Shown: positions 11,872-64,000 of the stretch, in pieces
Layout: the number at the start of each line of letters is the position of its first letter
Position numbering within the stretch: position 1 is the first letter of the stretch
The notes under the pieces: generated by a model
Databases searched by the model: none
Told to the model about the DNA's origin: nothing
Seen by the model: the letters and a program-made list of their open reading frames with translations, nothing else
Made by a program: the position numbers and the translations under genes
From: an uncultured Actinomycetota bacterium
GTDB lineage: Bacteria; Actinomycetota; Actinomycetes; Actinomycetales; Cellulomonadaceae
Length of the DNA: 64,000 nt
Direction: 5' to 3'
NCBI GenBank assembly: GCA_963807045.1
Contig: CAWDZL010000002.1
Span: forward strand, 1,664,118-1,728,117

Positions 11872-12073
11872 CGACGTCCTCTCCGTCCGGGCGCTGCCGT
11901 CGCGTTCCTACCGGCAGCGCTGTCCTCGCCAGTATCGCGCTCGGACCCCGACGCTCCGCTGCAGCGAAACGTGCGTATGGCGACGGGTTCGCGAGAGGCC
12001 GCCCCCGGTCCGCACGAACATGCACCCGCTGTGCGCGCGACAGTTGTGCGCACAGCGGGTGGACGCGCGCAGG

Positions 12074-29902: not shown

Positions 29903-30886
29903 TCAGTCGGCAGTGGCGCCGCAGCCGGCGGCCGCCGGCTCGGTCCCGGCCTCCGCCGCGACCACGGCGAGGCCCTCCGGCGTCGGCGGCTCGGACTCGA
30001 CGGCCGGTGCGCGGCGCGAGGCGAGGGCGGATCCCGCGAGGACGAGCACGAACCCGGCCGCGGTGAGCCAGGTGATCGGCTCGTCGAGCACGATCGCGCC
30101 GGCCGCGACCGCCACCGCCGGGTTCAGGTAGGTGACGAGCGTGCTCCGCAGGGCGCCGACCTCGGCGACCAGGGCGAAGAAGAGCATGAGCGCCGCGGCG
30201 GTGCAGATCAGACCCAGCCCGACAGCGGACGCCGTGACGCTCGCCGACGGCCATCGGTCCGGAGCGTGGGCCACGCCCGGGACCGCGTAGATCGCGGTGG
30301 CCGTGAGCAGGCTGAGCGCGATGACGCCCGTGGCGGGCGCGTCGGCGAGGTGGCGCGCCATGATCACCGGCCCGATGGCGTAGCAGAGGATCACGACGGC
30401 GAGCTCCCCGACGGCCTGCGCCTCGCCGCCGCCGCTCGTCGCGCCGCTCTCGAAGCCGACCAGCAGCGCCACGCCCGCGAAGCCGATGCCCAGCCCGAGC
30501 GCCCCGCGCGCGCCGAGGTGCTCGCTGCGGCGGGTGACCAGGGCGATCACGACCCCGACGATCGGCACCCCGGCGATGAGCAGGCCGGTCAGCGAGCTGG
30601 GCAGGTGCCGCTCGGCGTCGGTCAGGAAGAACCACGGCAGCACGATCTCGATCACGGCGTAGACGACCACCGCGCGCCAGTGCCGCAGTGCCCCGGCGAG
30701 CGCGCCCCGGGAGACCGCGAGCGGCACCATGACGAGGGAGGCGATGACGACGCGCGACAGGACGAGCGTCGTCGGGTGCAGCTCGTCGACGGCGATCTTG
30801 ATCAGCAGGTAGGGGATGCCCCACGCGACGCCGAGCCCCGCGAACAGAAGGAACGCGCGGCTCGAGCGGTGGTCGGCAGAGGTCAC
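29903..30886 (-). CDS. EamA/DMT superfamily transporter
   Basis: Ten TM helices with two EamA repeats. GTG start at 30886. The upstream extension of the track ORF runs through palindromic element 1. Confidence 0.75.
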   Translation of the reverse strand: MTSADHRSSRAFLLFAGLGVAWGIPYLLIKIAVDELHPTTLVLSRVVIASLVMVPLAVSRGALAGALRHWRAVVVYAVIEIVLPWFFLTDAERHLPSSLTGLLIAGVPIVGVVIALVTRRSEHLGARGALGLGIGFAGVALLVGFESGATSGGGEAQAVGELAVVILCYAIGPVIMARHLADAPATGVIALSLLTATAIYAVPGVAHAPDRWPSASVTASAVGLGLICTAAALMLFFALVAEVGALRSTLVTYLNPAVAVAAGAIVLDEPITWLTAAGFVLVLAGSALASRRAPAVESEPPTPEGLAVVAAEAGTEPAAAGCGATAD

Positions 30887-30906
30887 CGGGCAACCCTGCG
30901 GACGTG

Positions 30907-31060
30907 CCCCCACCCCCGTCAACCCCGCCGTCCCCCCCGCCCCCCCGCGCGCAAAGTGGAGCGAACGGCACGCGACACGCTGGCGTGTCGGTGCCGTTCG
31001 CTCCACTTTGCGGATGGAGAGGGGGTCAGGTGAGGGTGGGGGGTGACGTGGGGGTCCAGT
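30907..31060. repeat. nested palindromic element, copy 1 (C-rich arm, then 30-bp stem hairpin GCAAAGTGGAGCGAACGGCACGCGACACGC/revcomp, then G-rich arm)
   Basis: Read in the sequence. The core is 30951-31011. The right arm overlaps the 3' end of the flotillin CDS. Confidence 0.85.
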
Positions 31061-32975
31061 TGCGGAGAGCACCCGTGAGGGTTGCGGCCAGGCCCGTGAT
31101 GGCGCCCGTGTCGTTCCCGCCCACCATCACGTCCGGCACGATCTTGACGTGCCCGTCCGCGACGGCCGCAGCGATCGCGACCGCCGACGTCGCCTGCTGC
31201 CCGATGGCGGCCACCTGGGCCTCGTAGCCCGCCGCCTTCGCGAGCCCGAGCGCCTCCGTCGCCTTCGCCTCGGCCAGACCGATCGCCCGACGGCGGTCCG
31301 CCTCGGCCTCACCGGTCTTGCGGACGAACGCCGCCTCGCCGTCGGCCTGCGCGGTGCGGGCCGAGGCCTCCGCCTTCTGGATCTCGACGTTGACGTTCGC
31401 CTTCGCGAGGTCCGTCTGCATGTCGGCGGTGCCGCGGACGCGCTCGAGGTCGACACGCACCTCCTGGGCGCGCTTCTGCTCCTCGTACGTGACCCGTTCC
31501 TGGTTCGCGATCTCACGCTGGGTGAGGACGGCGACCAGCTCCGGCGGGAAGATCACGTCCTGCACGTAGACGCCGCGTGTCTCCACCTCGTACCCGCTGA
31601 GGTACCCGGTGATGTACTGCTGCGCCTGCGCCTGCACGGTGTCGCGGGTCTCGATGAACTGCACGGCCGGCAGCTGCTGGAGGGCGTTGCGGAAGTAGTT
31701 GCCCACCGCGGACTGCAGCACCTCGTTGACCAGGTTCTGCATGGTGCCGACCATCGAGATGACCTTCGGTGCTCGGCTGTCCGAGACGTGGATCTGCACC
31801 TGCAGGTCGATGCCGAAGACGAAGCCCTCACGCGACTTGCCGTCGATCGGGCTCAGCGCTTCGTCGAGGTTGTGCGCCGCCGAGGTCGTGTTCGCCCAGT
31901 TCAGCGTGATGATCGACGTCGGGACGAGCTCCGCCGCGTAGACGCGCGGGTTGATCGCGAACTTGCCGGTGCGCAGCGGCTCGTTCCAGATGCCGCGGTG
32001 GCCGGGCCGCACGATGGAGCCGAACTTGAAGTCCGCCCCGGACGTGTCGACGGTCGGGAGACCGACGTACGCCTTGATGACGGCGACCTCGCCCTGCCGG
32101 ACGACGAGCATCGGCACCAGCTCGACACGCACCAGGAACGGGTTGAGCAGGTACGAGCCGTACAGCAGCGGGTCGTGCTGGAGGCCGATGCGGCCGCCGT
32201 TGTCCAGGAACGCCTGGTAGTCCTGGTAGTTGTTGTGGACCCCGTTCTTGCTGGACAGGATCGCCTCGATCTTCTCGCTCTCCGTCGCACCGGCGGCCTC
32301 GAGCGCGGCGACGTCCTCGAACCCGCCGAGACGGCTGGCGATGTCGCTGCCCTCGGGCGCCTCGCCCTCGAGCGTGGTCACGACGCCGATGACGTCCTGA
32401 CCCTGCTGGGGCGCGATCACCGTCACGCGGAGCTGCTGGGGGAGCAGGCCGAGCGACTCGGGCGACGTGACCTGGTGGCCGCCGGCCTGCTGGATGGGCA
32501 CGCCGTACAGGCGGCTGGCCGTGAGCACGACGAACGCCAGGGGGTGCAGCGGCAGCAGCGTGCCCGGGGGCAGCACGGGCCGCTGGATGCCCTTCTGGCC
32601 ACCCTCCGCGAGGAACCCTGCGAGGTCCGTGAAGTTGCCGAACGACGGCTTGTACGCGGCGCTCTTGGCGCCGATGGGCAGGGGAGCGCCGAGCTGGGCG
32701 ATGACGACGCCGATCTCGCCCGGGTTGACCTGCACCCACGGGTGCTTCGTCACCGAGAAGACGGGCCACAGCTTGAAGCGCAGGCCGGGCATGAGGAGGC
32801 GGGCCTGGTAGCCGGCTTCCCCGTTGAACGCGATGGCCTGGTCGCCCTTGAGGCGCCGGCCGAGCCGCTTGTTGACGAGACCGACCTCACTCGCGCCGAT
32901 GAAGCGGAATGACGCCAGGAGGACGAGGAGCACGACGGCTCCGGCAACGATCCCGGCGATGACGCCAGGTGTCAT
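31026..32975 (-). CDS. flotillin-like SPFH/band-7 protein (YqiK-like)
   Basis: A 649-aa protein with an N-terminal TM, an SPFH domain, and a long EA-rich coiled coil (flotillin region). The C-terminal PT-rich tail is encoded by the repeat arm. Confidence 0.8.
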   Translation of the reverse strand: MTPGVIAGIVAGAVVLLVLLASFRFIGASEVGLVNKRLGRRLKGDQAIAFNGEAGYQARLLMPGLRFKLWPVFSVTKHPWVQVNPGEIGVVIAQLGAPLPIGAKSAAYKPSFGNFTDLAGFLAEGGQKGIQRPVLPPGTLLPLHPLAFVVLTASRLYGVPIQQAGGHQVTSPESLGLLPQQLRVTVIAPQQGQDVIGVVTTLEGEAPEGSDIASRLGGFEDVAALEAAGATESEKIEAILSSKNGVHNNYQDYQAFLDNGGRIGLQHDPLLYGSYLLNPFLVRVELVPMLVVRQGEVAVIKAYVGLPTVDTSGADFKFGSIVRPGHRGIWNEPLRTGKFAINPRVYAAELVPTSIITLNWANTTSAAHNLDEALSPIDGKSREGFVFGIDLQVQIHVSDSRAPKVISMVGTMQNLVNEVLQSAVGNYFRNALQQLPAVQFIETRDTVQAQAQQYITGYLSGYEVETRGVYVQDVIFPPELVAVLTQREIANQERVTYEEQKRAQEVRVDLERVRGTADMQTDLAKANVNVEIQKAEASARTAQADGEAAFVRKTGEAEADRRRAIGLAEAKATEALGLAKAAGYEAQVAAIGQQATSAVAIAAAVADGHVKIVPDVMVGGNDTGAITGLAATLTGALRNWTPTSPPTLT

Positions 32976-33140
32976 GGTGATGCACCGATCCTTCAGTCAG
33001 GTGTGCGCCTCGTGGCGCGCCCCGAGAGTGTGGCACCGAGATCATCCGCCGCGCGGGCCTTTCCGGGAGCCGGCGGACACCCTCCCGGGAGCCGGACGCC
33101 GCCCTTCCGGGAGCCGGACAAGCCCGATCCGTGAGCCGGA

Positions 33141-33268
33141 CGGGGGAGTCCCTCCTCTCCCCGCGGTTCCTCACGCAAAGTGGAGCGAAGTGCACCGACA
33201 CGCCAGGCGTGTCGGTGCACTTCGCTCCACTTTGCGGACGAAGGGGGGTGGGGGGCTAGGGGTGGGGG
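33141..33268. repeat. nested palindromic element, copy 2 (perfect 30-bp stem GCAAAGTGGAGCGAAGTGCACCGACACGCC/revcomp)
   Basis: Core at 33175-33235. The G-rich arm encodes the C-terminal HVPHP of the ABC ATPase. Confidence 0.85.
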
Positions 33269-33834
33269 ACGTGGACGAGCGGGGCGGCCAGGGCGTCGGC
33301 GTCGGCGCGTTCGTGGGTGACCAGCAGCATCGTGCGGCCGCCGTGGGCCTCGCGCAGGTGCGCCACCGCAAGCTCGCGCGAGGCGACATCGAGCCCCGCG
33401 AACGGCTCGTCGAGCACCGTGAGCTCGGCGCGGACCAGCAGTGCGCGGGCCAGCGCCACCTTGCGCCGCTGCCCGCCGGACAGCTCCCGCACGGGCTTGC
33501 GCAGCGCGTCGTCGTCCAGGCCGAGCGCCCGCAGCTCGGCGACCACGGCCTCGGCGTCGGCGGCCCGACCCAGCACCAGGCGCACGTTGCGCACGGCGCT
33601 GAGCTGACCGCACAGCCGGTCCTCCTGGAACGCCGCCGCCCGTCGCCGCGGAACCCCGCGCACCTCGCCGGCGTCGGGCGTCTCGAGGCCCAGCAGGAGC
33701 CGGCCGATCGTCGTCTTGCCGCTGCCGTTGGGACCCATCAGGGCCGTCACGACGCCGTCGGGCAGCGTCAGGTCCAGCCCGTCGAGGACCACCTGGTCGC
33801 CGTAGCGCTTCGTCACCCCGCGCAGCTCGATCAC
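33256..33834 (-). CDS. ABC transporter ATP-binding protein (NitT/TauT-like)
   Basis: GPNGSGKTT, LSGGQRRK, LDEPFAGLD. Its GTG start overlaps the permease stop (GTGA). Confidence 0.8.
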   Translation of the reverse strand: MIELRGVTKRYGDQVVLDGLDLTLPDGVVTALMGPNGSGKTTIGRLLLGLETPDAGEVRGVPRRRAAAFQEDRLCGQLSAVRNVRLVLGRAADAEAVVAELRALGLDDDALRKPVRELSGGQRRKVALARALLVRAELTVLDEPFAGLDVASRELAVAHLREAHGGRTMLLVTHERADADALAAPLVHVPHP

Positions 33835-34664
33835 GCCGCCGCCTCCGTCCCGGAGGGGGGCGCGACCGGCGTCGGGCGCCCAACGGCCAGTCGTCGCTCG
33901 GCGCGGCCCAGCAGCGCGACCAGGCCCTTCTCGAACCCGTAGCTCGCGGCGATGATCACGGCGGTCCAGGCGAACAGGTCGGCGCTGGAGAGGAAGAGCT
34001 TCGCCTCGTAGAGGCGTTCGCCGATGCTCCCGTCGGGCAGCCCGATCACCTCCGCCGCGACGCCGCTCTTCCAGGCGAGCCCGACGCCGAGGCGGCACGC
34101 GGCGAGGAAGAAGGGCAGCACGGCGGGCACGTCCACGGCGGTGACCCGCCGCACGAGCGGCACCTCGAAGACCGTCGCCATCTCCAGGAGCGCGCGATCG
34201 CGGTGCCGGATGCCCTCCAGCACGGTGACGTACGCGACCGGCAGCACCATCAGGAACGAGGTGATCGCGGCGAGCTTGCCGCTGTCGGCCACGAGCAGCA
34301 CCAGGATGATGAAGCTGACGACGGGCGCCGCGCGCACCGCGACGAGGAACGGCGTCAGCAGGGCGTCGGCGACCCGCGACCAGGCGGCGAGGGCCGCGAG
34401 CACGACGCCGACCGCCACGGCGAGCGCGAAGCCCACCGTGATGCGCGCGAACGAGAACCACACCGTGGACCAGAAGTCCGCCGTCGGCACGAGGTCGACG
34501 AGCCGCTCCGCGACGTCAGCAGGCGGGGCGAAGAGGAAGTCGTGCCCCACCCAGGCCGCGACGAGCTGCCAGACGGCCAGCCAGAACACGACGACCCCCA
34601 GGAGGCGCAGTGCCCCCCGGGGGTCGCGACGTGTGCGACGGTCAGCCGGCGAAGTAGAAGTCAT
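33831..34664 (-). CDS. ABC transporter permease (NitT/TauT-like)
   Basis: Six TM helices. The start (Met 34664 versus 34682) is uncertain. Confidence 0.7.
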   Translation of the reverse strand: MTSTSPADRRTRRDPRGALRLLGVVVFWLAVWQLVAAWVGHDFLFAPPADVAERLVDLVPTADFWSTVWFSFARITVGFALAVAVGVVLAALAAWSRVADALLTPFLVAVRAAPVVSFIILVLLVADSGKLAAITSFLMVLPVAYVTVLEGIRHRDRALLEMATVFEVPLVRRVTAVDVPAVLPFFLAACRLGVGLAWKSGVAAEVIGLPDGSIGERLYEAKLFLSSADLFAWTAVIIAASYGFEKGLVALLGRAERRLAVGRPTPVAPPSGTEAAA

Positions 34665-35685
34665 CGCCCGGCATCGTCCCACCGACCGAGGCGGGGTCGG
34701 CGTCGAACAGCACCTTCAGGTACCCACCGAGCGTCGTCTTCAGCTCCGCGCCGCCGATGAACGTGATGTGCGAGCCCGGGATCGCCTTCTCGGCGACCGG
34801 GGCCGCGGGCACGATGCCGGCGTCGGCGATGAGCTTCGCCGCCTCGGCGGGGTTGTCGTTCGTGAACTCCGTGGAGGCCTCGTAGTCGGTGAGGAACTGC
34901 GCGAAGGCCTCCGGGTTCTCCTCGATGAACTGCGTGCGGGCGACGACGACGCCGGTCACCAGCGCGGAGTCCTTGGCGACCGCGTCCCACTCGTCGGTGA
35001 GGCTGAGGGCCGTGCGGACCGCGGGGTTCTGCGTCTGCACGACCGTGGCGAACGGCTGGGGCAGCATCGCGATGGTCCCGGGTGCGCTGGCCAGGACGGA
35101 GGCGACCTCGGTGTGCTCGCTGCGGTAGTCGACGGTCACGTCGACGCCCGGCTCGAGGCCGTTGCTGCGCAGGATGTAGTCGAGGACGTACTCCGGCGAG
35201 GCGCCCTTGCCGGACGCGACGATCGTCTTGCCCCTGAGGTCGGCGACGCTCTGCACGGTGTCGCCCGACTCGAGGATGTCCATGACGCCGAGGGTGTTGA
35301 TCGCGGCGACCTGCACCGCGGCGCCGTCGTCGGTGAGCGTCTTGTTGTAGAGGACGGCGGCGAGGTTGGCGGGGACCATCGCGACGTCGGCCTTGCCCTG
35401 CACGACGAGCGGGACGATCTCGTCCGGGCTGCCGTACATCGTGACCTGGTAGTCCTCGGCGGCCTGGCCCGTCGTCGCCTGGTCCATGAGGTGGACGAGC
35501 CCCATCGTCGTCGGGCCCTTGAGGGACGCGATGCGGATGGTGGTGGGCTCCGCGGGCGTGGTGGCCGCGGCCTCGGCGTCGGGGGTGGTGCTCGGCGTTG
35601 CGGCGGGCTCGGTCGCGGAGCTGCAGCCGGCGAGCAGGGCTGCGACGGCGACGACGCCGGTCAGGACGCGAGAGATGCGCTTCAC
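34642..35685 (-). CDS. ABC transporter substrate-binding lipoprotein (NMT1/THI5-like)
   Basis: Signal peptide with lipobox LAGC. A periplasmic binding fold. Confidence 0.8.
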   Translation of the reverse strand: MKRISRVLTGVVAVAALLAGCSSATEPAATPSTTPDAEAAATTPAEPTTIRIASLKGPTTMGLVHLMDQATTGQAAEDYQVTMYGSPDEIVPLVVQGKADVAMVPANLAAVLYNKTLTDDGAAVQVAAINTLGVMDILESGDTVQSVADLRGKTIVASGKGASPEYVLDYILRSNGLEPGVDVTVDYRSEHTEVASVLASAPGTIAMLPQPFATVVQTQNPAVRTALSLTDEWDAVAKDSALVTGVVVARTQFIEENPEAFAQFLTDYEASTEFTNDNPAEAAKLIADAGIVPAAPVAEKAIPGSHITFIGGAELKTTLGGYLKVLFDADPASVGGTMPGDDFYFAG

Positions 35686-35833
35686 TGGGTCCTCGTTTCT
35701 CGGCGACCGACCGCCGGTCGGCGCCGGCGGTGGCGGGGTGGCTGCGCCGCCGCGAATTGGCCCGACGCGCGCCGCCGAAACCGACGTTACGGGCGTAGTC
35801 GTCCCATCACCGCGGACTTCCGACCCACCCGCT

Positions 35834-36012
35834 GCCCGCCCCTCTCTCCCCCCGCCCCGCCCCTCTCCCCACCCCAGCCGCGAGCGCTGCCACGGCGCGC
35901 GAGAACTGCCGTCTGGACGGCAGCGTTCGCGTGCCGTAGCAGCGCTCGCGGCTGGGGTGGGGCGGGGGGGAGGGGCGGGGGGTTACGGGGTGGGTGCGGG
36001 TCGGGGGCGGCG
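35834..36012. repeat. nested palindromic element, copy 3 (about 180 bp; C-rich arm, CGCGAGCGCTGCC...GGCAGCGCTCGCG core, G-rich arm)
   Basis: Read in the sequence. The arms are imperfect inverted copies of each other. The right arm supplies the C-terminal codons of the F420 reductase. Confidence 0.8.
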
Positions 36013-36639
36013 GGCGGACGCGAGGTCGGTGCGCAGCTCCTCGGCGGTGCGGCGCGGACCGTAGCCGGGGGTGTCCGGCTGGATGCGCCAGCCCTCCGCG
36101 AGGCCGTCGAGCTCCACGGTGTCGAACCCGAGCGCGTCGATCAGCTCGGCGACGGCCCGGCGCGCGTCGGCGTCGTCGGCGGCCACCACGAGCGCGCGGC
36201 GCCCCGGCGTGCCCGACGGCGTCGCGTGCTCGGTGAGGTCGGCCGCGGTGATGTGGTTGAACGCCTTCACGACGACGGAGCCCGTCAGGCGCTGCTGGAG
36301 CAGCTCGGCGGAGGTGATGCTCTCTTCGTCGAGCTCCGGGATGTGCCCGTCGCGCTGCCAGTAGTAGTTGTTCGTGTCGATCACGATCTTGCCGGCGAGG
36401 GGCTCGACCGGGACGGTGCCGATGGCGTGCAGGGGGATGGTCACGACGGCGAGGTCCGCGGCCTCGGCTGCCTCCCGTGGTGTCCCGGCCCGCGCGTGGT
36501 CGCCCAGCTCGTCGACGAGGTCCACCAGGGTGTGTGGTCCGCGGGAGTTGCTCAGGACGACGTCGTAGCCGTTCGCGACGGCCAGGCGCGCGAGCTGGGA
36601 GCCGATGTGGCCGGAGCCGATGAGTCCGATTGTGGTCAT
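35983..36639 (-). CDS. NADPH-dependent F420 reductase (Npd-like)
   Basis: N-terminal Rossmann motif (MTTIGLIGSGHIGSQLARLAVANGYDV) and F420 reductase-like overall sequence. Confidence 0.7.
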   Translation of the reverse strand: MTTIGLIGSGHIGSQLARLAVANGYDVVLSNSRGPHTLVDLVDELGDHARAGTPREAAEAADLAVVTIPLHAIGTVPVEPLAGKIVIDTNNYYWQRDGHIPELDEESITSAELLQQRLTGSVVVKAFNHITAADLTEHATPSGTPGRRALVVAADDADARRAVAELIDALGFDTVELDGLAEGWRIQPDTPGYGPRRTAEELRTDLASARRPRPAPTP

Positions 36640-36705
36640 GAGGACGTCAACCGCTGCCGCCGCGACCCATTCCCGCCCGACGCCGTGACGCCCGACACGC
36701 GACTA

Positions 36706-36806
36706 GCCCCTCCCGCGAGCGCTGCCGTCTCACGCGAGCGCTGCCGGGTGGATGGCAGCGCTCGCGTGAGACGGCAGCGCTCGGCGGAGGGGGGCGGGGG
36801 CGCGGG
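36706..36806. repeat. nested palindromic element, copy 4 (about 40-bp stem; shares CGCGAGCGCTGCC with copy 3)
   Basis: Lies in the divergent intergenic region between the F420 reductase and the alpha/beta hydrolase. Confidence 0.8.
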
Positions 36807-36832
36807 GTGTCGGTGGTGGCGGATAGCGTCCT

Positions 36833-37630
36833 GTGGTGACCTTCAGAGTGCCGTCTCGTGTTGTGCCCTGGACCCTCGTCGCCTACGGCGCGCTGCCCGA
36901 CCAGGTCGCCGAGGTGACCGTGCCCGACGGCGCTCGCGGACCCCTGCCGCTCGTCCTGCTGCTGCACGGCGGGGTGTGGCGTGAGCCGCACGACCGCGTG
37001 CACGTGCGGCCGCTCGCCTCGGCGCTCGCGCGGCTCGGGGCGATCGTGGCGAACGTCGACTATCGGCGCGTGGACGGTGCGGGCGGGTGGCCGGCGACCT
37101 TCGAGGACGCCGCGGCCGCGACCGACCTGCTCCCCGATCTGATCGAGACGGCGGGGCTCGCCCGGGTGGACCGCGGCGCCGTCGTGCTGGTCGGCCACTC
37201 GGCCGGCGGGCACCTCGCGCTCTGGTCGGCGCTGCGGGACCGGTTGCCGGAGGGTGCACCGGGGTGGCGGGCGACGGCGCCCGCGGTGACCGGCGTCGTC
37301 CCGATGGGTGCGGTCGTCGCGCTGACGGAGTTCCACGCGGGCCGCGAGGCACCGACGGTCGAGCGGCTGATGGGCGGCTCGCCGGCGCAGGTGCCGGACC
37401 GTTACCGAGCGGCGGACCCGGCGGGGCTCGGGGCGCCGGACTGCCGGACGATCCTCGTGCACGGCGGCGAGGACGAGGAGGTGCCGGTCGCGACGGCCCG
37501 CGCCTACGCGACGGCGCACCCCGAGGTCGAGCTGGTGGAGATACCGGCGACGGGCCACTTCCCGCTCATCGATCCGGCGTCCGACGCCTGGCCGGCGGTC
37601 CGCGACGCGGTCCTGAGCGCCCTGACCTGA
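36833..37630 (+). CDS. alpha/beta hydrolase (esterase/lipase-like)
   Basis: HGGVW oxyanion-hole region, GHSAGG nucleophile elbow, and a C-terminal His. Confidence 0.75.
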   Translation: MVTFRVPSRVVPWTLVAYGALPDQVAEVTVPDGARGPLPLVLLLHGGVWREPHDRVHVRPLASALARLGAIVANVDYRRVDGAGGWPATFEDAAAATDLLPDLIETAGLARVDRGAVVLVGHSAGGHLALWSALRDRLPEGAPGWRATAPAVTGVVPMGAVVALTEFHAGREAPTVERLMGGSPAQVPDRYRAADPAGLGAPDCRTILVHGGEDEEVPVATARAYATAHPEVELVEIPATGHFPLIDPASDAWPAVRDAVLSALT

Positions 37631-37647
37631 GCGCGCCTGGGCGCCGA

Positions 37648-37797
37648 CTACTTCGCAGAGCTGGTCTTGACCCTGGAGATCGACGCGGGCGGGGGCCGCA
37701 GGCCGCCCTTCGGGGACTTGCCCGCCGGGTATCCACCGCGGAAGGTGTCGCCGCTCGACTTCTCGGTGGTCGACGACCGCCGCTTCTTGTCGCTCAT
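37648..37797 (-). CDS. small basic Ser/Thr/Lys-rich protein (49 aa)
   Basis: ATG 37797 preceded by GGAAGGGAG. The sequence is low-complexity, so this is a weak call. Confidence 0.3.
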   Translation of the reverse strand: MSDKKRRSSTTEKSSGDTFRGGYPAGKSPKGGLRPPPASISRVKTSSAK

Positions 37798-37817
37798 GGT
37801 TCGGCCGCTCCCTTCCA

Positions 37818-38480
37818 TCACGGGTCGATGAACGCAGCGTAGGCGACCTGGTCCCAGTTGACGAGCACGGCGATGCCGCGACGGAGGACCGCACCGTCCT
37901 CGTCGACGAGGAAGTCCCCGCTGTCCGGGTCCAGCTCGCAGGTGTCCACCAGGTAGAGGTCCTGCGTGTGGGGAAAACCGGCCGCATAGCTGCCCGGACG
38001 CGCGCCCCCGTCGTCGCTCGGGTCCTCCCACGCACCGGCCAGCCAGGTGCCGCTCTTGAGTCGCAGACGCAGCCAGCCCGTGAGCGCGGGGGACCGGAAC
38101 AGTGCATCCCAGCCCCTCGGTGCGGGCGACGGCCCCGTGAAGTAGCGGGCCCACCGCTTCCGCTGCTTCGCCGCGACCCCGACGGCGCTGCCGAGCGCGA
38201 TGGGGAAGACGACGTATGCGGCGTAGATCAGCCAGACCCACCAGGGCACCCGCAGGCCGTCCTCGGAGCTCCACGCGCTCGTGTACCGGCAGTAGAGCCA
38301 GTAGACGAGGGGCGCGGTGAGGACCGAGAACGCCGCTGAGACGCCGACGAAGCGGGCGATGCGGTCGCTCAGCGCGACCTCCCACGCGCCGTCTTCCCGC
38401 TCGTAGGCCCAGGTGTAGAGCGCGCCGGGCAGCACCGCGAGGACGAACACCGCTATCGCCTGGAATGTGCTCGGCGCCAT
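37818..38480 (-). CDS. hypothetical polytopic membrane protein
   Basis: 220 aa with 4-5 TM helices. Protein-like composition. Confidence 0.5.
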   Translation of the reverse strand: MAPSTFQAIAVFVLAVLPGALYTWAYEREDGAWEVALSDRIARFVGVSAAFSVLTAPLVYWLYCRYTSAWSSEDGLRVPWWVWLIYAAYVVFPIALGSAVGVAAKQRKRWARYFTGPSPAPRGWDALFRSPALTGWLRLRLKSGTWLAGAWEDPSDDGGARPGSYAAGFPHTQDLYLVDTCELDPDSGDFLVDEDGAVLRRGIAVLVNWDQVAYAAFIDP

Positions 38481-38564
38481 CGGGTCATCGTGCCGCAGCC
38501 GTCGGGCCGCGTGTGGGCGGTTGTGGACGACGACGCCGGGGCCGGCGGGGGTGACGACGCTCGC

Positions 38565-39758
38565 TCAGCCCTGGGCGAGCCGGTCCAGCGCCAGGCCGGC
38601 GAGCACCGCTGCCGACAGCGGCAGCGCCGACTCGTCGAACCGGGCCTGCGCCGAGTGGTTGTACGGCGCCGTGGCGGGATCCGAGCCGGCGGGCGTTGCG
38701 CCGACGAAGACGTACGCCCCCGGCACCTGCTCCAGCACGTAGGAGAAGTCCTCGGCGCCGGCCAGTGGCTGCGCCAGCTCGGCGTAGTGCCCCGGCCCGG
38801 CGAGCTCGCCGACCACGCGCTCCACGCGCGCCACCTCCGCGGCGTCGTTCACCGTCACCGGGTAGCCGCGTACGTACTCGACGTCGGCGGTCATCCCGTG
38901 CGCGGCGGCGACATGCTCGAACAGTCGCGCGAGCCGCTCCGGCACGGCCGCGTGCGACGCCGGTGAGAACGTCCGCACGGTCGCGGCGAGCTCCGCGGTC
39001 GCCGGGATGACGTTGTCGGTGGTCCCGGCGGCGATCCGCCCGACGGACACCACCACGGGGTCGTGCGCGTCGAACTGCCTGGTCACCGCGGTCTGTAGCG
39101 CGAGCACCATCTCCGCCGCCACCGGTACCGGGTCGGCCGCGAGGTGCGGCATGGACCCGTGCCCGCCCCGGCCCCGCACGGTGACGAACACCTGGTCGGC
39201 GGCCGCCATGAGGGTTCCGGGCCGACCGGTGACCTGACCCGACGGGAACAGCCCCGACGCCACGTGCACCCCGTACGCCGCGACCACGCGGTCGCCGGCG
39301 GCGTCGAGCACGCCCTCCTCGATCATCACGCGCGCGCCGTGCGGCCCCTCCTCGCCCGGCTGGAACATGAAGACGACCGAGCCCGCGATCTTGTCCCGGC
39401 GTGCAAGCAGTAGCCGCGCCGCGCCCACCAACCCGGCCACGTGCAGGTCATGCCCGCACGCGTGCATGACGCCGGGGTGCTCGCTCGTGAACGGCTCGCC
39501 GGTGTCCTCGGTGACGGGCAGGGCGTCCATGTCGCCGCGCAGCAGCACGGCCGGTCCGGGCCGCGCGCCGCGCAGCACGGCGGTCACTGAGCTCAGCCTC
39601 GTGCCCGTCGACACCTCCAGGTCCAGCCCGGCCAGTGCTTCGAGGAGCCGCGCCTGCGTCTTCGGCAGGTCCAGCCCGATCTCTGGGATGCGGTGCAGGT
39701 CGCGGCGCAGCGCCGACAGCTCCGGGGCGAGGGCCCGCGCCTGCGCGAGGAGGGTCAT
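38565..39758 (-). CDS. M20D family amidohydrolase (hippurate hydrolase/N-acyl-amino acid amidohydrolase-like)
   Basis: Metal-binding motifs (MHACGHD, GEEG). ATG 39758 is in frame within the track ORF. Confidence 0.8.
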   Translation of the reverse strand: MTLLAQARALAPELSALRRDLHRIPEIGLDLPKTQARLLEALAGLDLEVSTGTRLSSVTAVLRGARPGPAVLLRGDMDALPVTEDTGEPFTSEHPGVMHACGHDLHVAGLVGAARLLLARRDKIAGSVVFMFQPGEEGPHGARVMIEEGVLDAAGDRVVAAYGVHVASGLFPSGQVTGRPGTLMAAADQVFVTVRGRGGHGSMPHLAADPVPVAAEMVLALQTAVTRQFDAHDPVVVSVGRIAAGTTDNVIPATAELAATVRTFSPASHAAVPERLARLFEHVAAAHGMTADVEYVRGYPVTVNDAAEVARVERVVGELAGPGHYAELAQPLAGAEDFSYVLEQVPGAYVFVGATPAGSDPATAPYNHSAQARFDESALPLSAAVLAGLALDRLAQG

Positions 39759-39773
39759 GGCCCGAGTATGTCG

Positions 39774-39883
39774 CCCCGGCAGATCCCCGCCGCACAGTGG
39801 AGCGTTGCGTGGCCCGTTCGTTCCATCGCGGCGGTTCGACGGAGCGCAACGTTCCACTGTGCGGGTGTGCGGGGATTACTGGT
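39774..39883. repeat. nested palindromic element, copy 5 (stem CACAGTGGAGCGTTGCG / CGCAACGTTCCACTGTG with a 35-nt loop)
   Basis: Lies between the carbamate kinase 3' end and the amidohydrolase start. It shares the AGTGGAGCG core with copies 1 and 2. Confidence 0.75.
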
Positions 39884-53633: not shown

Positions 53634-53784
53634 GGACGGATGGTGCCACGGCAGGGTCCGGCGTCGTGCGCGTTCTGTCCGGGGGCCTCGAGGCCGTGCG
53701 GGCCACCGCGCTCAGCAAGGCCGAGGGCCTGAGCCGGCCCGTCGGGACTGTCGGCTTCTTCGCGCTGAACATCACCCCCCCGCG

Positions 53785-53838
53785 CCCGAGGCTGGGAGGG
53801 TTAGGTGCCTCCTGGCGCGACAACCCTCCCAACCTCGG
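53785..53838. repeat. 52-bp direct repeat copy A containing hairpin TGGGAGGGTT-N19-AACCCTCCCA
   Basis: Near-identical to 54314-54365 (2 mismatches). It lies downstream of lipoprotein gene 53854-54168. Confidence 0.8.
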
Positions 53839-53853
53839 GCGCAGGCGTCCGCC

Positions 53854-54168
53854 TCAGCCGGCCGGCGTCACCCGCGCGGTCCCGTCGCGCACGACGATCT
53901 GCTGGTCGGGGCACACCGGCCCCGGTACGGTCACCCGGCGCCCCGAGGGGAACGTGACGACGACGTCGCCGGGCGAGCAGCCGTAGTCCAGGAGCACGGC
54001 GCCGCCGTCGGCGTCCACGGTGAACGGGTCCTCGTCGCCGGGATCGATCACGACGTCGTCCGGGCCTCGGTTCTCGATCGACAGGTCGCCGGCGTCGGCG
54101 CACCCGGTCAGTACCGCTGCCGCGACGACGAGCAGCACGCTCGCGGCGATCCTCGTCCGGCCGCTCAT
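53854..54168 (-). CDS. small lipoprotein
   Basis: Signal peptide with lipobox LTGC. ATG 54168 is in frame within track ORF 53854..54291. Confidence 0.5.
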   Translation of the reverse strand: MSGRTRIAASVLLVVAAAVLTGCADAGDLSIENRGPDDVVIDPGDEDPFTVDADGGAVLLDYGCSPGDVVVTFPSGRRVTVPGPVCPDQQIVVRDGTARVTPAG

Positions 54169-54313
54169 CCGTGCCCCCGTCCCGCCGCCCGTCCCGTGCT
54201 CGCGACCGCTTCGCGCTCCGGCCCATCCCGTGCTCCCGACCATAGCCAGGCCCGCTCGGCGCCACGGGCACCACCACACCCTCGCCACCATCCCTCCACG
54301 CCGACGACGCGGC

Positions 54314-54365
54314 GCCGAGGCTGGGAGGGTTAGGTGCCTCCCGGCGCGACAACCCTCCCAGCCTC
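54314..54365. repeat. 52-bp direct repeat copy B (same hairpin-containing unit)
   Basis: Read in the sequence. It lies downstream of lipoprotein gene 54403-55099. Confidence 0.8.
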
Positions 54366-54402
54366 GCCCCAGGCGGGCTGGGGCCGGGGGCGGGCGTTCG
54401 GC

Positions 54403-61928: not shown

Positions 61929-62065
61929 GCCCCCACTCTGCTGCACCGGGCGCCCGCTGTGGGCGGACGACGACGTCGCCCGGGCCTGCACCTGCTCTCG
62001 TGCCACCCGAACGCGGTCATGACGAAGGGCCCGCCACCCACGTCACCGCAGGTCACGGGCCCTTC

Positions 62066-62110
62066 TTGCGCGGAGGATGGGGGATTCGAACCCCCGAGGG
62101 CTTTCACCCA
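62066..62110 (-). other. tRNA 3' fragment (T-arm GGGGGTTCGAATCCCCC plus acceptor 3' strand), not a complete tRNA; candidate att site remnant
   Basis: The T-loop/T-stem and 7-nt acceptor strand read perfectly. No complementary 5' acceptor strand or D/anticodon arms were found within 100 nt. Confidence 0.55.
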
Positions 62111-62272
62111 ACACGCTTTCCAAGTGGCCTGGCGGGGTGGTGGGTGGGTGCGGGTGGACGTGTTTGGGCTGGTCAGGACGCTGCGCGGACGGTGGCGGAC
62201 TGGCGCGGCGGGTTTGGTCTGGAGACAGACTGCTACCAAGACTGCTACCGGCACGGACTCGCGACTCTGGGC

Positions 62273-63991
62273 TCAGGCGCCGTGCCAGCCGAGCTTCCCA
62301 AGTGCCGTGTCTGGGTCGATGAAGCCCCAGTCGAGTGCGGCCTTGCGTAGGGCTTCAAGGACGACGGAGCGCTCGGCGCCCTGTGTGAGCCAGCTTCGCT
62401 CCCACGCGGAGGACGCAGCCTGCAGTGGCATGTCTCTCCCGGCCCCGAGCGCGGTGAGGTCGAGTAACTCGCGGAGGTCGGCTGTGCCTGCCGGCCTCGC
62501 CTCCATGTGTAGCTCAGCCGAGACGATTCGGTCTTCGCCCCGCGCGATGGCTCGGACGGCCGGCGAAGTTGTTGCTAGAGCAGCACGGAGGAGCGCCACC
62601 CAGCAGTCCACGACGTCCGACAGCGGGAGGGGTGCCTTGACCTCTAGAACCCGGTCCGCGAGGACGTACAGTCCTGGCGTCATCGTCCCCATCGAGACGA
62701 CAAGGCGCTCCTCGTCGCCCCGAGTAAAGACGGCGTTCCCGCTCGACTGCCACTCTGATCCAGGCTGCTGCCAGGCGCCACCTCCATCTGAGGCGAGCGC
62801 AGCCGACAGCAGCTTCCTATGCCGGGGTTCGATCTGGACTAGAAGGTGACCCGGCAAGCTCCTGATGATCGCCGCTCGGATGACGAGAGTGCAGCGGGCG
62901 CCGTCACTCCTGGTTGGGTCGGCGTACGTGCCGGGGCGAAGAGTCGGAACAAGGGGGAGAGGATGCGTTGAGCCCATCGCCTCGGGAGTCCGCTGCTTTG
63001 GCGCGGGGTCATGAAGAAGACGACCCGCTAGGAGGGCGTGCACTTGCGCGGCAATGACGGGGACGCTGTCGTCGTCCCGGCGCGCCACGATTGAGAAGAA
63101 GGACCCCTCGATGCGGTTCGCTGCTAGCGCGCCGTGGACCAGGAAGGGCCGAAGGACCGGATCCTGCCTCGGCACGTGGACAGCGATGACACCACCGTCC
63201 GTGCCGATGACGGGGTGGAAGGCGACGCGGAGGCCCGGCACTGGCGGATAGACACGGGCATCGAGGAGATGACGGAGTCTCCGGGTCTCAGCTCTCGAAC
63301 TTGGAATCGGGGCCACCGAGGTGACGATCTCGCCCCGCGGGCCGGTCTTCGTCCGGTAGCCGAGCAGCAGCAAGCCTCCCTGCCCATTCGCCAGTCGGGC
63401 CACGTCCTGGGCAGCTTCGATCGCCTGCCCTGCCTCGGACAACCGGTAGGGGGCCGACTTGACCTCGAGCCAGTCGCTCTCCCGTTGACCAGCCAGCAGG
63501 TCCCCTCTTCCTGCTGCGACGAGAGCCAGGGCGCTCTCGGTGTCGAGCGGCCCGGCCTGCAGCAACGCGGAGAGCCCGTCACCTGCAAGGACGAACTGGC
63601 TGATAGTGGCCGCTGAGCGTGGCCGGAGTTGCGCGCGGATCTCCACCCAGTCGGCGCGACTTGTGGCCCGCCCGAGGTCGACCTCGGGGTAGCGAAATGC
63701 AGGTGAGAGCTGCCTTGAAGCAATCGTGCCGATCTCGGTATCGGTTAGTTGTGCATCACGCCGCGCGGTAGTCCGGACGACGACGGAGATGCTCCGGCCG
63801 ACGACCATCGAGGTCAGTTGGGTTGGGGCGAGCTCCTCCTCCCGCGCTTCTGCGAGCTTCCCGGAACTCCTCGCCGGGGATTGTGGTGAAGTAGACCTCG
63901 AACTCGTCGTCCCTTGAGCCACCCAGCCTCGCGTTGGCGCGCCTGAGAACGGCGGCGACGTCGCGCACGCGCTCGTCTCGGATCCAGTCAA
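62273..63991 (-). CDS. AlbA_2 (Schlafen-like putative DNA-binding) domain protein, large uncharacterized C-terminal region
   Basis: SDWLEVKS...LANGQGGLLLLG matches the AlbA_2 core pattern. GC is lower than the flanking chromosome. Confidence 0.55.
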   Translation of the reverse strand: MTGSETSACATSPPFSGAPTRGWVAQGTTSSRSTSPQSPARSSGKLAEAREEELAPTQLTSMVVGRSISVVVRTTARRDAQLTDTEIGTIASRQLSPAFRYPEVDLGRATSRADWVEIRAQLRPRSAATISQFVLAGDGLSALLQAGPLDTESALALVAAGRGDLLAGQRESDWLEVKSAPYRLSEAGQAIEAAQDVARLANGQGGLLLLGYRTKTGPRGEIVTSVAPIPSSRAETRRLRHLLDARVYPPVPGLRVAFHPVIGTDGGVIAVHVPRQDPVLRPFLVHGALAANRIEGSFFSIVARRDDDSVPVIAAQVHALLAGRLLHDPAPKQRTPEAMGSTHPLPLVPTLRPGTYADPTRSDGARCTLVIRAAIIRSLPGHLLVQIEPRHRKLLSAALASDGGGAWQQPGSEWQSSGNAVFTRGDEERLVVSMGTMTPGLYVLADRVLEVKAPLPLSDVVDCWVALLRAALATTSPAVRAIARGEDRIVSAELHMEARPAGTADLRELLDLTALGAGRDMPLQAASSAWERSWLTQGAERSVVLEALRKAALDWGFIDPDTALGKLGWHGA

Positions 63992-64000
63992 CGGGGAGGG

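Follow-up and report, generated by a model that had tools for sequence, protein, structure and literature searches.

Repetitive extragenic palindromic (REP) sequences and REPINs occur in tens to hundreds of copies per genome and are known from, for example, Pseudomonas and E. coli. REPINs are symmetric doublets with highly conserved ends and a less conserved spacer; they form a long hairpin in which compensatory changes are common (PMC3116915). The end tag of REP sequences is given in PMC3733652 as the tetranucleotide GTAG or CGTC. In Mycobacterium, the TRIT palindrome is located at gene termini and is conserved in sequence and structure, and its authors suspected that the double-stranded RNA motif is bound by a factor (PMC3152330). 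Here, we describe a family of palindromes with three members (W1, W2, and W3) in a 64,000-nucleotide stretch of an uncultured Actinomycetota bacterium of the Cellulomonadaceae (GenBank assembly GCA_963807045.1, contig CAWDZL010000002.1, positions 1,664,118 to 1,728,117), hereafter called the window. With slightly more than even confidence, we regard W1 to W3 as REPIN/TRIT-like, low-copy, lineage-restricted, dispersed intergenic palindromes of Micrococcales/Cellulomonas-like actinomycetes, with arms that are templated at the DNA level and a 3'-end RNA hairpin. The family is apparently undescribed and narrowly distributed; its general kind is already known among bacterial repeats.

The W1 core spans positions 30950 to 31012 (63 bp, no strand assigned) and was identified from its sequence, its folds, and the covariance models R1 and R2 (E values of ~1e-15 to 1e-17). 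It reads CGCAAAGTGGAGCGAA-CGGCAC-G-CGACACGC-TG-GCGTGTCG-GTGCCG-TTCGCTCCACTTTGCG. The left half is composed of an outer box (30950 to 30965), the variable segment CGGCAC (30966 to 30971), a bulged G (30972), and the inner box CGACACGC (30973 to 30980); beyond the TG loop follow the mirrored inner box (30983 to 30990), the variable segment GTGCCG (30991 to 30996), and the mirrored outer box (30997 to 31012). Folding shows W1 to be a near-perfect palindrome in which the bulged G at 30972 (1 nt) separates a 22-bp stem from an apical stem of 8 bp. The W2 core (33174 to 33236, likewise 63 bp without strand) was recognized from its sequence, a 100% complementary inverted repeat, folds, and a covariance model. 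It is a perfect 31+1+31 palindrome, CGCAAAGTGGAGCGAA-GTGCAC-CGACACGCC-A-GGCGTGTCG-GTGCAC-TTCGCTCCACTTTGCG, comprising the outer box (33174 to 33189), the variable segment GTGCAC (33190 to 33195), the inner box (33196 to 33204), the loop A (33205), and the mirror arm (33206 to 33236). An earlier note on this DNA had reported 61-bp cores at 30951 to 31011 and 33175 to 33235, the second a perfect palindrome and the first nearly so. We find both elements at these sites, the reported cores being the 63-bp elements less one closing C:G pair, and W1 deviates only by its single bulged G. The diverged third member, W3 (39791 to 39863, no strand), was retrieved by model R1 at an E value of 3.7e-6 and by model R2 at 5e-5 and is supported by a fold; its arms, GCACAGTGGAGCGTTGCG and CGCAACGTTCCACTGTGC, enclose a 35-nt nonpalindromic center. 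The arm 15-mer has four exact occurrences versus 0.71 expected.

RNA folding gave -57 and -62 kcal/mol for the W1 and W2 cores and -86 to -98 kcal/mol with flanks (z = -9 to -11), while DNA folds of the hairpins had z scores of -12 and -15. These hairpin structures are not due to chance. On the 5' side of W1 (plus strand), a C-rich tract that includes two C7 runs (30904 to 30949; seen in the sequence and the extended fold) pairs with a G-rich tract 3' of the core to form an extended hairpin of -95.6 to -97.6 kcal/mol. Around W2, alignment delimits a flank at 33143 to 33173, which is pyrimidine rich on the plus strand and G/A rich on the sense strand, and a G-rich tract at 33237 to 33255 between the core and the stop codon of an ABC transporter ATPase gene. 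Both are parts of a ~114-nt segment that is missing in the related locus L028 (loci in other genomes are numbered L001 onward), and 25 nt of the 33143-to-33173 flank are missing in L024 as well. The C-rich (5') and G-rich (3') tracts around the cores are partly native coding sequence for Pro/Thr-rich protein tails; the tail of the flotillin encoded beside W1 is native, and part of the C-rich tract next to it is therefore coding. The C7/C7 homopolymer runs and G4-type motifs (e.g., GGGGGGTGGGGGGCTAGGGGTGGGGG) beside the palindromes, at 30918 to 30947 and 33243 to 33275, may have the potential for quadruplex formation or slippage. No Rfam family matches the elements at gathering thresholds. At relaxed thresholds, the matches were spurious hits to miRNA precursors, as is typical of any long hairpin.

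A strict two-arm pattern search of GTDB species genomes retrieved only four contigs (loci L001 to L004), all from one metagenome-assembled genome (MAG), Actinomycetes bacterium OH_SFB_160, whose dcd gene is 87 to 88% identical to those of Cellulomonas and Actinotalea. A one-arm pattern search of metagenomes yielded two genuine members, L006 and the degenerate L015; the other 9 of the 11 matches were chance matches within coding sequence. Further members occur in close relatives of the window genome (L024, along with the related short hairpins L027 and L030), bringing the family to ~11 recovered members in all. Searches of viral contigs, plasmids, and phages found no family member, and a literature search for the arm sequence returned only unrelated primer sequences. 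The possibility that AGTGGAGC is a word overrepresented throughout the genome was rejected, as it is essentially limited to the elements. The copy number observed is three in the 64-kb window and at least four in the one fragmented MAG. Beyond the W copy of L006 (480 to 560) come three tandem 20-nt repeats (CCACTTTGAGGGCTGGGCGA), and in each of them the end of the right arm is duplicated along with its flank.

Alignment of the seven full copies revealed a common layout: an outer box, GCAAAGTGGAGCG(A/G)A, a variable segment of 6 to 9 nt, and the inner box CGACACGC. Both boxes are essentially invariant across genomes, with variation confined to the 6 to 9 nt between them. Each element is an inverted doublet of this ~30-nt unit, usually within a C-rich/G-rich extension, and the similarity between copies reaches 15 to 35 nt into the flanks. 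A single G, in W1 and in L002, is the only unpaired base. This architecture resembles that of REPIN and REP-BIME elements, which are likewise inverted doublets with conserved regions around a less conserved spacer, able to form a long hairpin in single-stranded DNA or mRNA; both groups are also extragenic and dispersed, and singlet, direct, and clustered units occur in relatives (L030). In contrast to REP sequences, the W outer box is not itself a small GC-rich hairpin, an extra conserved inner box is present at the apex, and neither end of any W-family copy carries a GTAG or CGTC tag, the arms beginning with (C)GCAAAGTGG. The family further differs from REPINs in its apparently low copy number, in the lack of a RAYT gene among the genes examined, and in its host, a high-GC actinomycete rather than a proteobacterium.

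With TRIT, the W family shares a palindromic form, conservation in both sequence and structure, and restriction to one actinobacterial lineage; the bidirectionality of TRIT is a further likeness, and W copies, too, are frequently found near gene ends, with which TRIT is tightly associated. The conservation of TRIT in sequence suggests a binding factor. TRIT has a sequence other than that of W, is not reported outside Mycobacterium, and mostly overlaps the end of the coding sequence (at about -8), whereas W cores start 6 to 26 nt after a stop codon; TRIT also numbers 147 copies in one genome, compared with the three W copies seen in 64 kb (PMC3152330). The hypervariable internal stem segment and chimeric arms described below set W apart from TRIT. 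The spacing of 6 to 26 nt past the stop codon applies to W1, W2, W3, L024, L027, and L015, while L002, L004, and L006 lie 56 to 82 nt past it. Gaps that hold a copy are co-directional (W1 to W3, L015, and L024), convergent (L002), or upstream/divergent (L001, before a GH9 cellulase gene, and L003, 20 nt before the dcd start codon).

The 6-to-9-nt segments behave as a limited number of alternative alleles that are common to several genomes and recombined between arms. Allele AACGGCAC is present on both arms of W1, and AAGTGCAC is present on both arms of W2 and on the right arm of L002. The left arms of L002 and L004 carry GAGTGCGC/T. Allele AACCTGCTG occupies both arms of L001, the right arm of L024, and, approximately, the right arm of L004; AACCTGTCG is found on the right arm of L003 and the left arm of L024, AAGGTGCCG on the left arm of L003, and TTTCGGCAA on both arms of L006. 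Four of the eight full copies have the same allele on both arms and pair nearly perfectly, and the other four (L002, L003, L004, and L024) combine differing alleles, their arms differing at 3 to 5 positions. In L024, the 31-nt left arm matches the right arm of L003 exactly, although the two come from different organisms.

The earlier note had drawn attention to two coordinated differences between the stems of W1 and W2. The first is real: CG at 30966 to 30967 and CG at 30995 to 30996 in W1 correspond to GT at 33190 to 33191 and AC at 33219 to 33220 in W2. From W1 to W2, two adjacent pairs, C:G to G:C and G:C to T:A, are each altered on both sides. The right arms differ at 2 of 30 positions, which are exactly the partners of the altered left-arm bases; by a combinatorial estimate, the chance of such a partner match is ~1/435 × 1/9. 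The second difference, described as GC.G/CG.GC against C.G/C.G, proved instead to be the unpaired extra G in the W1 left arm together with a loop change, and the bulged G and the loop difference (TG versus CAG) jointly keep the length at 63.

Family-wide covariation was assessed in a model-based alignment of 21 rows, representing both strands of 11 elements; this alignment leans toward pairing because it was fitted to the structure and because both strands of each element were counted. Standard pairs occupied 95.6% of cells in it, compared with 82.5% in shuffles and 28 to 52% with slid partners. Changes on both sides were seen in 15 of 31 pairs, and none of 500 shuffles reached the observed covariation score. 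In an independent comparison of left arms with the reverse complements of right arms, there were 2.5 differences within a copy and 5.5 between copies, a contrast with a permutation p value of 0.00035. Among the variable columns, cells with compensated changes were more numerous than unpaired ones, at 42 to 15 (~3:1). As a statistic, the covariation thus survives the addition of further copies, which the earlier note had proposed as a test, naming equally frequent uncompensated mismatches as the contrary outcome. The note had gone on to infer selection on secondary structure in RNA or cruciform DNA, not on primary sequence alone. The paired state is indeed kept well above chance. A stepwise route through compensatory substitutions is not supported, nor is a reading that sets structure against primary sequence, because the boxes are strongly conserved in sequence and only the 6 to 9 nt between them vary.

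In these data, matched arm changes fit RNA-level and DNA-level causes alike. At the RNA level, the elements would be classical structured RNAs (an I-shaped terminator, an RNase III site, or a 3' stabilizer) with a stem kept by ordinary compensatory point substitutions. We consider this rather unlikely. The strong family-wide covariation and the very stable hairpins agree with it, as does the placement of most copies a few nucleotides beyond the stop codons of co-directional or convergent genes, and several of the mismatches are G:U on the sense strand (L024 and L002). I-shaped actinobacterial terminators also resemble W in having a long GC-rich stem right after the stop codon and no T-run. Moreover, ordinary orthologous terminators show compensated T:A-to-C:G change: the post-flotillin hairpins at 12022 to 12065 of L019 and 12022 to 12065 of L020 differ by one such pair, the L020 stem being three pairs longer, and compensated change is therefore common in 3' hairpins of the clade generally. 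Such terminators are locus specific, however, with unrelated hairpins at the same sites in relatives, whereas W is repeated and common to several genomes. A constraint on structure only would leave the invariant boxes unexplained and sits poorly with the 3 to 5 arm mismatches tolerated in four of eight copies. The orientation of wobbles showed no significant sense-strand bias (~5 versus 3), and the cases were too few to test RNA-level selection by such a bias. Two copies precede genes. None of W1, W2, and W3 has a T-run or is reported by a terminator scan, and hairpins without a U-tract do not terminate mycobacterial RNA polymerase in vitro (PMC3993855).

The W1/W2 change consists of adjacent transversion pairs, for which G:U intermediates are impossible. 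Most informative is the W2 site itself: the L024 contig, which is 88.8% identical to positions 35832 to 31069 of the window (4.8 kb), carries its element in exactly this place, with the ATPase stop codon on one side and, on the other, the first of the 22-bp repeats that precede the flotillin gene. Relative to W2, 1 of 48 compared box positions is changed, but the variable segments (CCTGTCG/CAGCAGG in L024 versus GTGCAC/GTGCAC in W2) have nothing in common, and those of L024 pair imperfectly, with one U:G and one C:A. At ~11% divergence, the replacement of 13 of 13 variable positions with retention of all but one box position is therefore not the work of point mutation. Either block replacement of the segment took place or the site was hit twice. 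Such wholesale exchange between same-site copies argues against stepwise compensation as the main source of pairing; selection on RNA structure is a possible contributor.

We instead propose that the complementarity of the arms arises mainly through events in the DNA, by either of two routes. In the first, template switching within the palindrome would use the opposite arm as the template for a new or repaired copy. This documented mechanism turns quasipalindromes into perfect ones and, in a single event, can establish or preserve the pairing of a hairpin (PMC7202029, PMC8794818). A one-step template switch or conversion in a DNA palindrome can yield compensated changes, and no selection on RNA is needed (PMC7202029, PMC8794818). 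In the second route, ectopic conversion from another family member would use the conserved boxes as anchors, possibly following breakage of the hairpin, and conversion tracts ending in the central box would yield chimeric arms. With arms templated in this manner, the W1/W2 dinucleotide would be the difference between two symmetric alleles, AACGGCAC and AAGTGCAC, and the apparent compensation is probably not the product of two independent pairs of point mutations. If transcribed, as would be the case for the copies located 12 to 26 nt past stop codons, the element is predicted to fold into an RNA hairpin with 30 bp and about -60 kcal/mol that has no U-tract. By analogy with TRIT and REP/REPIN elements, this hairpin may act as a 3'-end barrier, a processing site, or a termination aid. 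Such a role would add some selection for keeping the stem.

Several observations weigh against this proposal. Function is its weakest step, given the lack of a U-tract, the in vitro behavior of mycobacterial RNA polymerase on such hairpins (PMC3993855), and the two copies upstream of genes; because L001 and L003 are so placed, a 3'-end role is not universal. No transposase, recombinase, integrase, or RAYT gene was found among the genes examined beside any copy, in the window or at the other loci, and no copy has duplicated flanking bases that would mark a target-site duplication. Rather than a converted ortholog, the copy that L024 has at the W2 site may be a separate insertion into a preferred location. 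Allele frequencies are weakly estimated because only ~11 members are available, several from related contigs. Finally, templating alone does not explain the near-invariance of the boxes, which implies either recent spread or a sequence-specific partner.

Alternatively, the elements could serve as double-stranded DNA operators of a dimeric regulator or nucleoid protein, which would recognize the outer boxes, the inner 19-bp palindrome CGACACGCC-A-GGCGTGTCG, or both; their symmetry would then mirror that of the protein. Conserved boxes around a free spacer would be expected of such a site, and some copies do lie upstream of genes (L001 and L003). Nevertheless, the symmetry of a protein needs no complementary spacers, yet the spacers are mostly complementary. 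Most copies are at 3' ends, the neighboring genes share no function, and no candidate regulator gene is linked to the element. We therefore give the operator explanation hardly any credence.

Comparison of orthologous sites showed that copies come and go. In L028, where the flotillin is 90% identical and the ABC-flotillin gene order is the same, the element is wholly missing, with 7 nt in place of ~114 nt of the window. In L016, L019, L020, L021, and L027 (flotillin 93 to 97% identical), arcC directly adjoins the flotillin gene, and unrelated hairpins follow both genes. The W1 position of L027 is occupied by a shorter relative of W1 (CGCGCGGTGGAGCGAACGTG...CACGTTCGCTCCACCGCGCG), and in L030, the unit (A/G)AGTGGAGCACCGTGGCG appears at the W2 position three times, twice in direct orientation and once inverted. 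The heptamer GTGGAGC is kept in these short hairpins and is the most persistent part of the family. Orthologous conservation upstream of dcd was considered and rejected, since the L003 element is missing at L022 and L023 (dcd 92 to 95% identical). With units that are inverted, direct, or clustered and are gained and lost at sites, the family therefore behaves like REP/BIME-type repeats.

The same turnover could indicate miniature inverted-repeat transposable elements (MITEs). Several features are compatible with transposition: copies are present or absent at orthologous sites, different genomes share half-sites that are identical, gaps of the convergent, co-directional, and divergent kinds all hold copies, and copy similarity runs 15 to 35 nt into the flanks. 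Hairpin MITEs (e.g., Correia, ERIC, and RUP) are likewise short, noncoding, dispersed elements with long hairpins and insertion polymorphism. The W elements do have inverted repeats. In contrast to MITEs, they lack a target-site duplication at every copy and an internal nonrepeat segment, and neither the window and the other loci nor the plasmid and phage collections yielded a parent insertion sequence with matching ends (GCAAAGTGGAGCG). The copy number looks low, and the direct-repeat units of L030 fit REP/BIME elements better than the inverted-repeat ends of cut-and-paste elements. We find the MITE reading improbable.

W2 and W3 stand near the two ends of the interval between the flotillin gene and arcC (33142 to 39875), a plasticity zone with gene content that differs in each relative examined. 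The window encodes M20, DUF6338, abhydrolase, F420, and ABC proteins there; L028 encodes M20, AbiE, F420, sigma factor, DUF3303, and ABC proteins; L030 encodes GH3, M20, abhydrolase, GHL10, and ABC proteins; L024 encodes a two-component system and an ABC transporter; and L016-type contigs have no genes in the interval. The idea that the 6.7-kb block between W3 and W2 is an insertion carried by the palindromes was rejected, because the more distant relatives L028 and L030 share the arcC...M20...ABC...flotillin order. The short arcC-flotillin arrangement of L016 is therefore a derived deletion.

Two further palindrome families accompany W in the window. X1 (35835 to 35994) and X2 (36707 to 36806) are very large palindromes, X1 having an RNA fold of -130.7 kcal/mol; their arms consist of 19-nt units starting GCGAGCGCTGCC, and their flanks are C rich and G rich. 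The gene that they bracket (35983 to 36639, minus strand) is F420-oxidoreductase-like, and X2 lies between divergent gene starts. Homology with L028 includes the F420 gene but neither X1 nor X2, and L003 (2353 to 2500) has an array of X-like direct and inverted units after the dcd stop codon. Y1 (53779 to 53845) and Y2 (54310 to 54370) form a third family, with the core CCGAGGCTGGGAGGGTT...AACCCTCCCAGCCTCGG. They are ~530 bp apart and bracket a 145-amino-acid open reading frame (ORF; 53854 to 54291, minus strand) without a Pfam match; Y1 has one uncompensated C:A mismatch, and Y2 is perfect.

This arrangement raises the question of whether the palindromes are site-specific or hairpin-directed recombination sites, akin to attC or pdif, that bound exchangeable gene modules, with crossovers at the center giving rise to chimeric arms. 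All five large palindromes between 30.9 and 39.9 kb are at boundaries of differing gene content, and same-family pairs bracket single genes (W1/W2, flotillin; X1/X2, F420-like; Y1/Y2, the 145-amino-acid ORF). Like attC and pdif sites, W elements are imperfect palindromes with conserved outer parts and a variable paired middle, and they stand between genes of like orientation in a region that varies. The combination of conserved boxes with a variable spacer recalls recombinase sites, and the hetero-allelic arms resemble reciprocal half-site exchange. On inspection, however, W lacks the R''/R' (RYYYAAC/GTTRRRY) cores of attC, along with its characteristic extrahelical bases and unpaired central spacer. 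No integrase, recombinase, or transposase is encoded in the 6.7-kb block or beside the copies examined, and no integron integrase is nearby. Nor do the flanked genes travel with the sites: flotillin and F420 genes stay in the same neighborhood in relatives without the palindromes and are therefore not cassettes carried with them. W1 and W2 are homo-allelic rather than reciprocal chimeras, and no hybrid site is left in the arcC-flotillin arrangement of L016. Furthermore, nearly every intergenic gap of the zone is a breakpoint in some relative; thus, the co-location of palindromes and breakpoints may be trivial. We accordingly give dedicated recombination sites little credence. A related and bolder view, which we also hold to be quite unlikely, is that the W, X, and Y palindromes are active recombination substrates with centers that are repeatedly broken, re-templated, or exchanged and that they drive gene turnover between arcC and flotillin. 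If true, this would mean hairpin-based module shuffling in high-GC actinomycetes and a candidate protein that reads the invariant GCAAAGTGGAGCG and CGACACGC boxes.

All window genes from ~29.9 to 41 kb are on the minus strand. Downstream of W1 is an EamA-family transporter gene (29903 to 30886, minus strand; Pfam EamA and GC3 frame analysis). The flotillin/SPFH gene (31026 to 32975, minus strand; Pfam Band_7 and homologs) is bracketed by W1 and W2, with 13 nt separating its stop codon from the W1 core, and its closest named homolog, at 83% identity, is from Pengzhenrongella (order Micrococcales). The window flotillin has 649 amino acids, compared with 664 to 666 in relatives of 93 to 97% identity; ~16 C-terminal residues (PTTPDVPLTPPDAATLS) are missing (31026 to 31070), the stop being beside the W1 core. 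The view that W1 replaced the flotillin C terminus is only partly right, as the protein is 15 amino acids shorter but its Pro/Thr-rich tail is native. The ABC transporter ATPase ORF (33256 to 34461, minus strand; Pfam ABC_tran and gene calls at the orthologous loci L024 and L028) ends 19 nt from the W2 core, and its upstream part overlaps a permease reading frame. W3 begins 12 nt beyond the arcC stop codon.

Upstream of the flotillin gene, a repeat scan and alignment identified 22-bp tandem repeats (33057 to 33142, no strand; GTCCGGCTCCCGGAAGGGCGNC) in three to four units. Their number and position are kept in L016, L019, L020, L021, L024, and L028. They are native to the locus, being present in relatives without W2, and mark the edge of the W2 insertion. 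In L019, one 22-bp unit and an inverted copy make up the hairpin after arcC. The repeats may be a regulator binding array.

Elsewhere, the sequence upstream of dcd includes a conserved region of ~330 to 440 nt that appears to be structured and contains GGCAAC-type motifs in repeated form (L003, 1210 to 1650; L022, 9474 to 9915; L023, 1747 to 2050). It matches no Rfam family at gathering score and may be an unannotated small RNA. The region, which is outside the window, ends in the hairpin GAGGCCCCTCGGACGCTTACTCCGAGGGGCCTC, and the same hairpin adjoins the W copy in L004 (2061 to 2093). At the end of the window (62001 to 64000), GC content falls to 0.67 from ~0.73 to 0.77. For a 572-amino-acid ORF there (62273 to 63991, minus strand), the only match is a weak one to Schlafen AlbA_2 that falls below the Pfam cutoff, and this segment may be acquired DNA.

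Taken together, the W elements suggest that high-GC Micrococcales-type actinomycetes carry sequence-conserved hairpin repeats at gene boundaries, comparable to TRIT and REPINs. To our knowledge, these lineages are without canonical U-tract terminators. Because textbook compensatory changes may arise in a single templated or recombinational step, covariation alone is no proof of selection on RNA, and covariation between repeat copies of a DNA palindrome should not by itself be read as selection on an RNA fold. The combination of invariant boxes with a swappable stem segment offers a handle for finding the recognition factor, if there is one, and for testing a role of these repeats in rearrangement.

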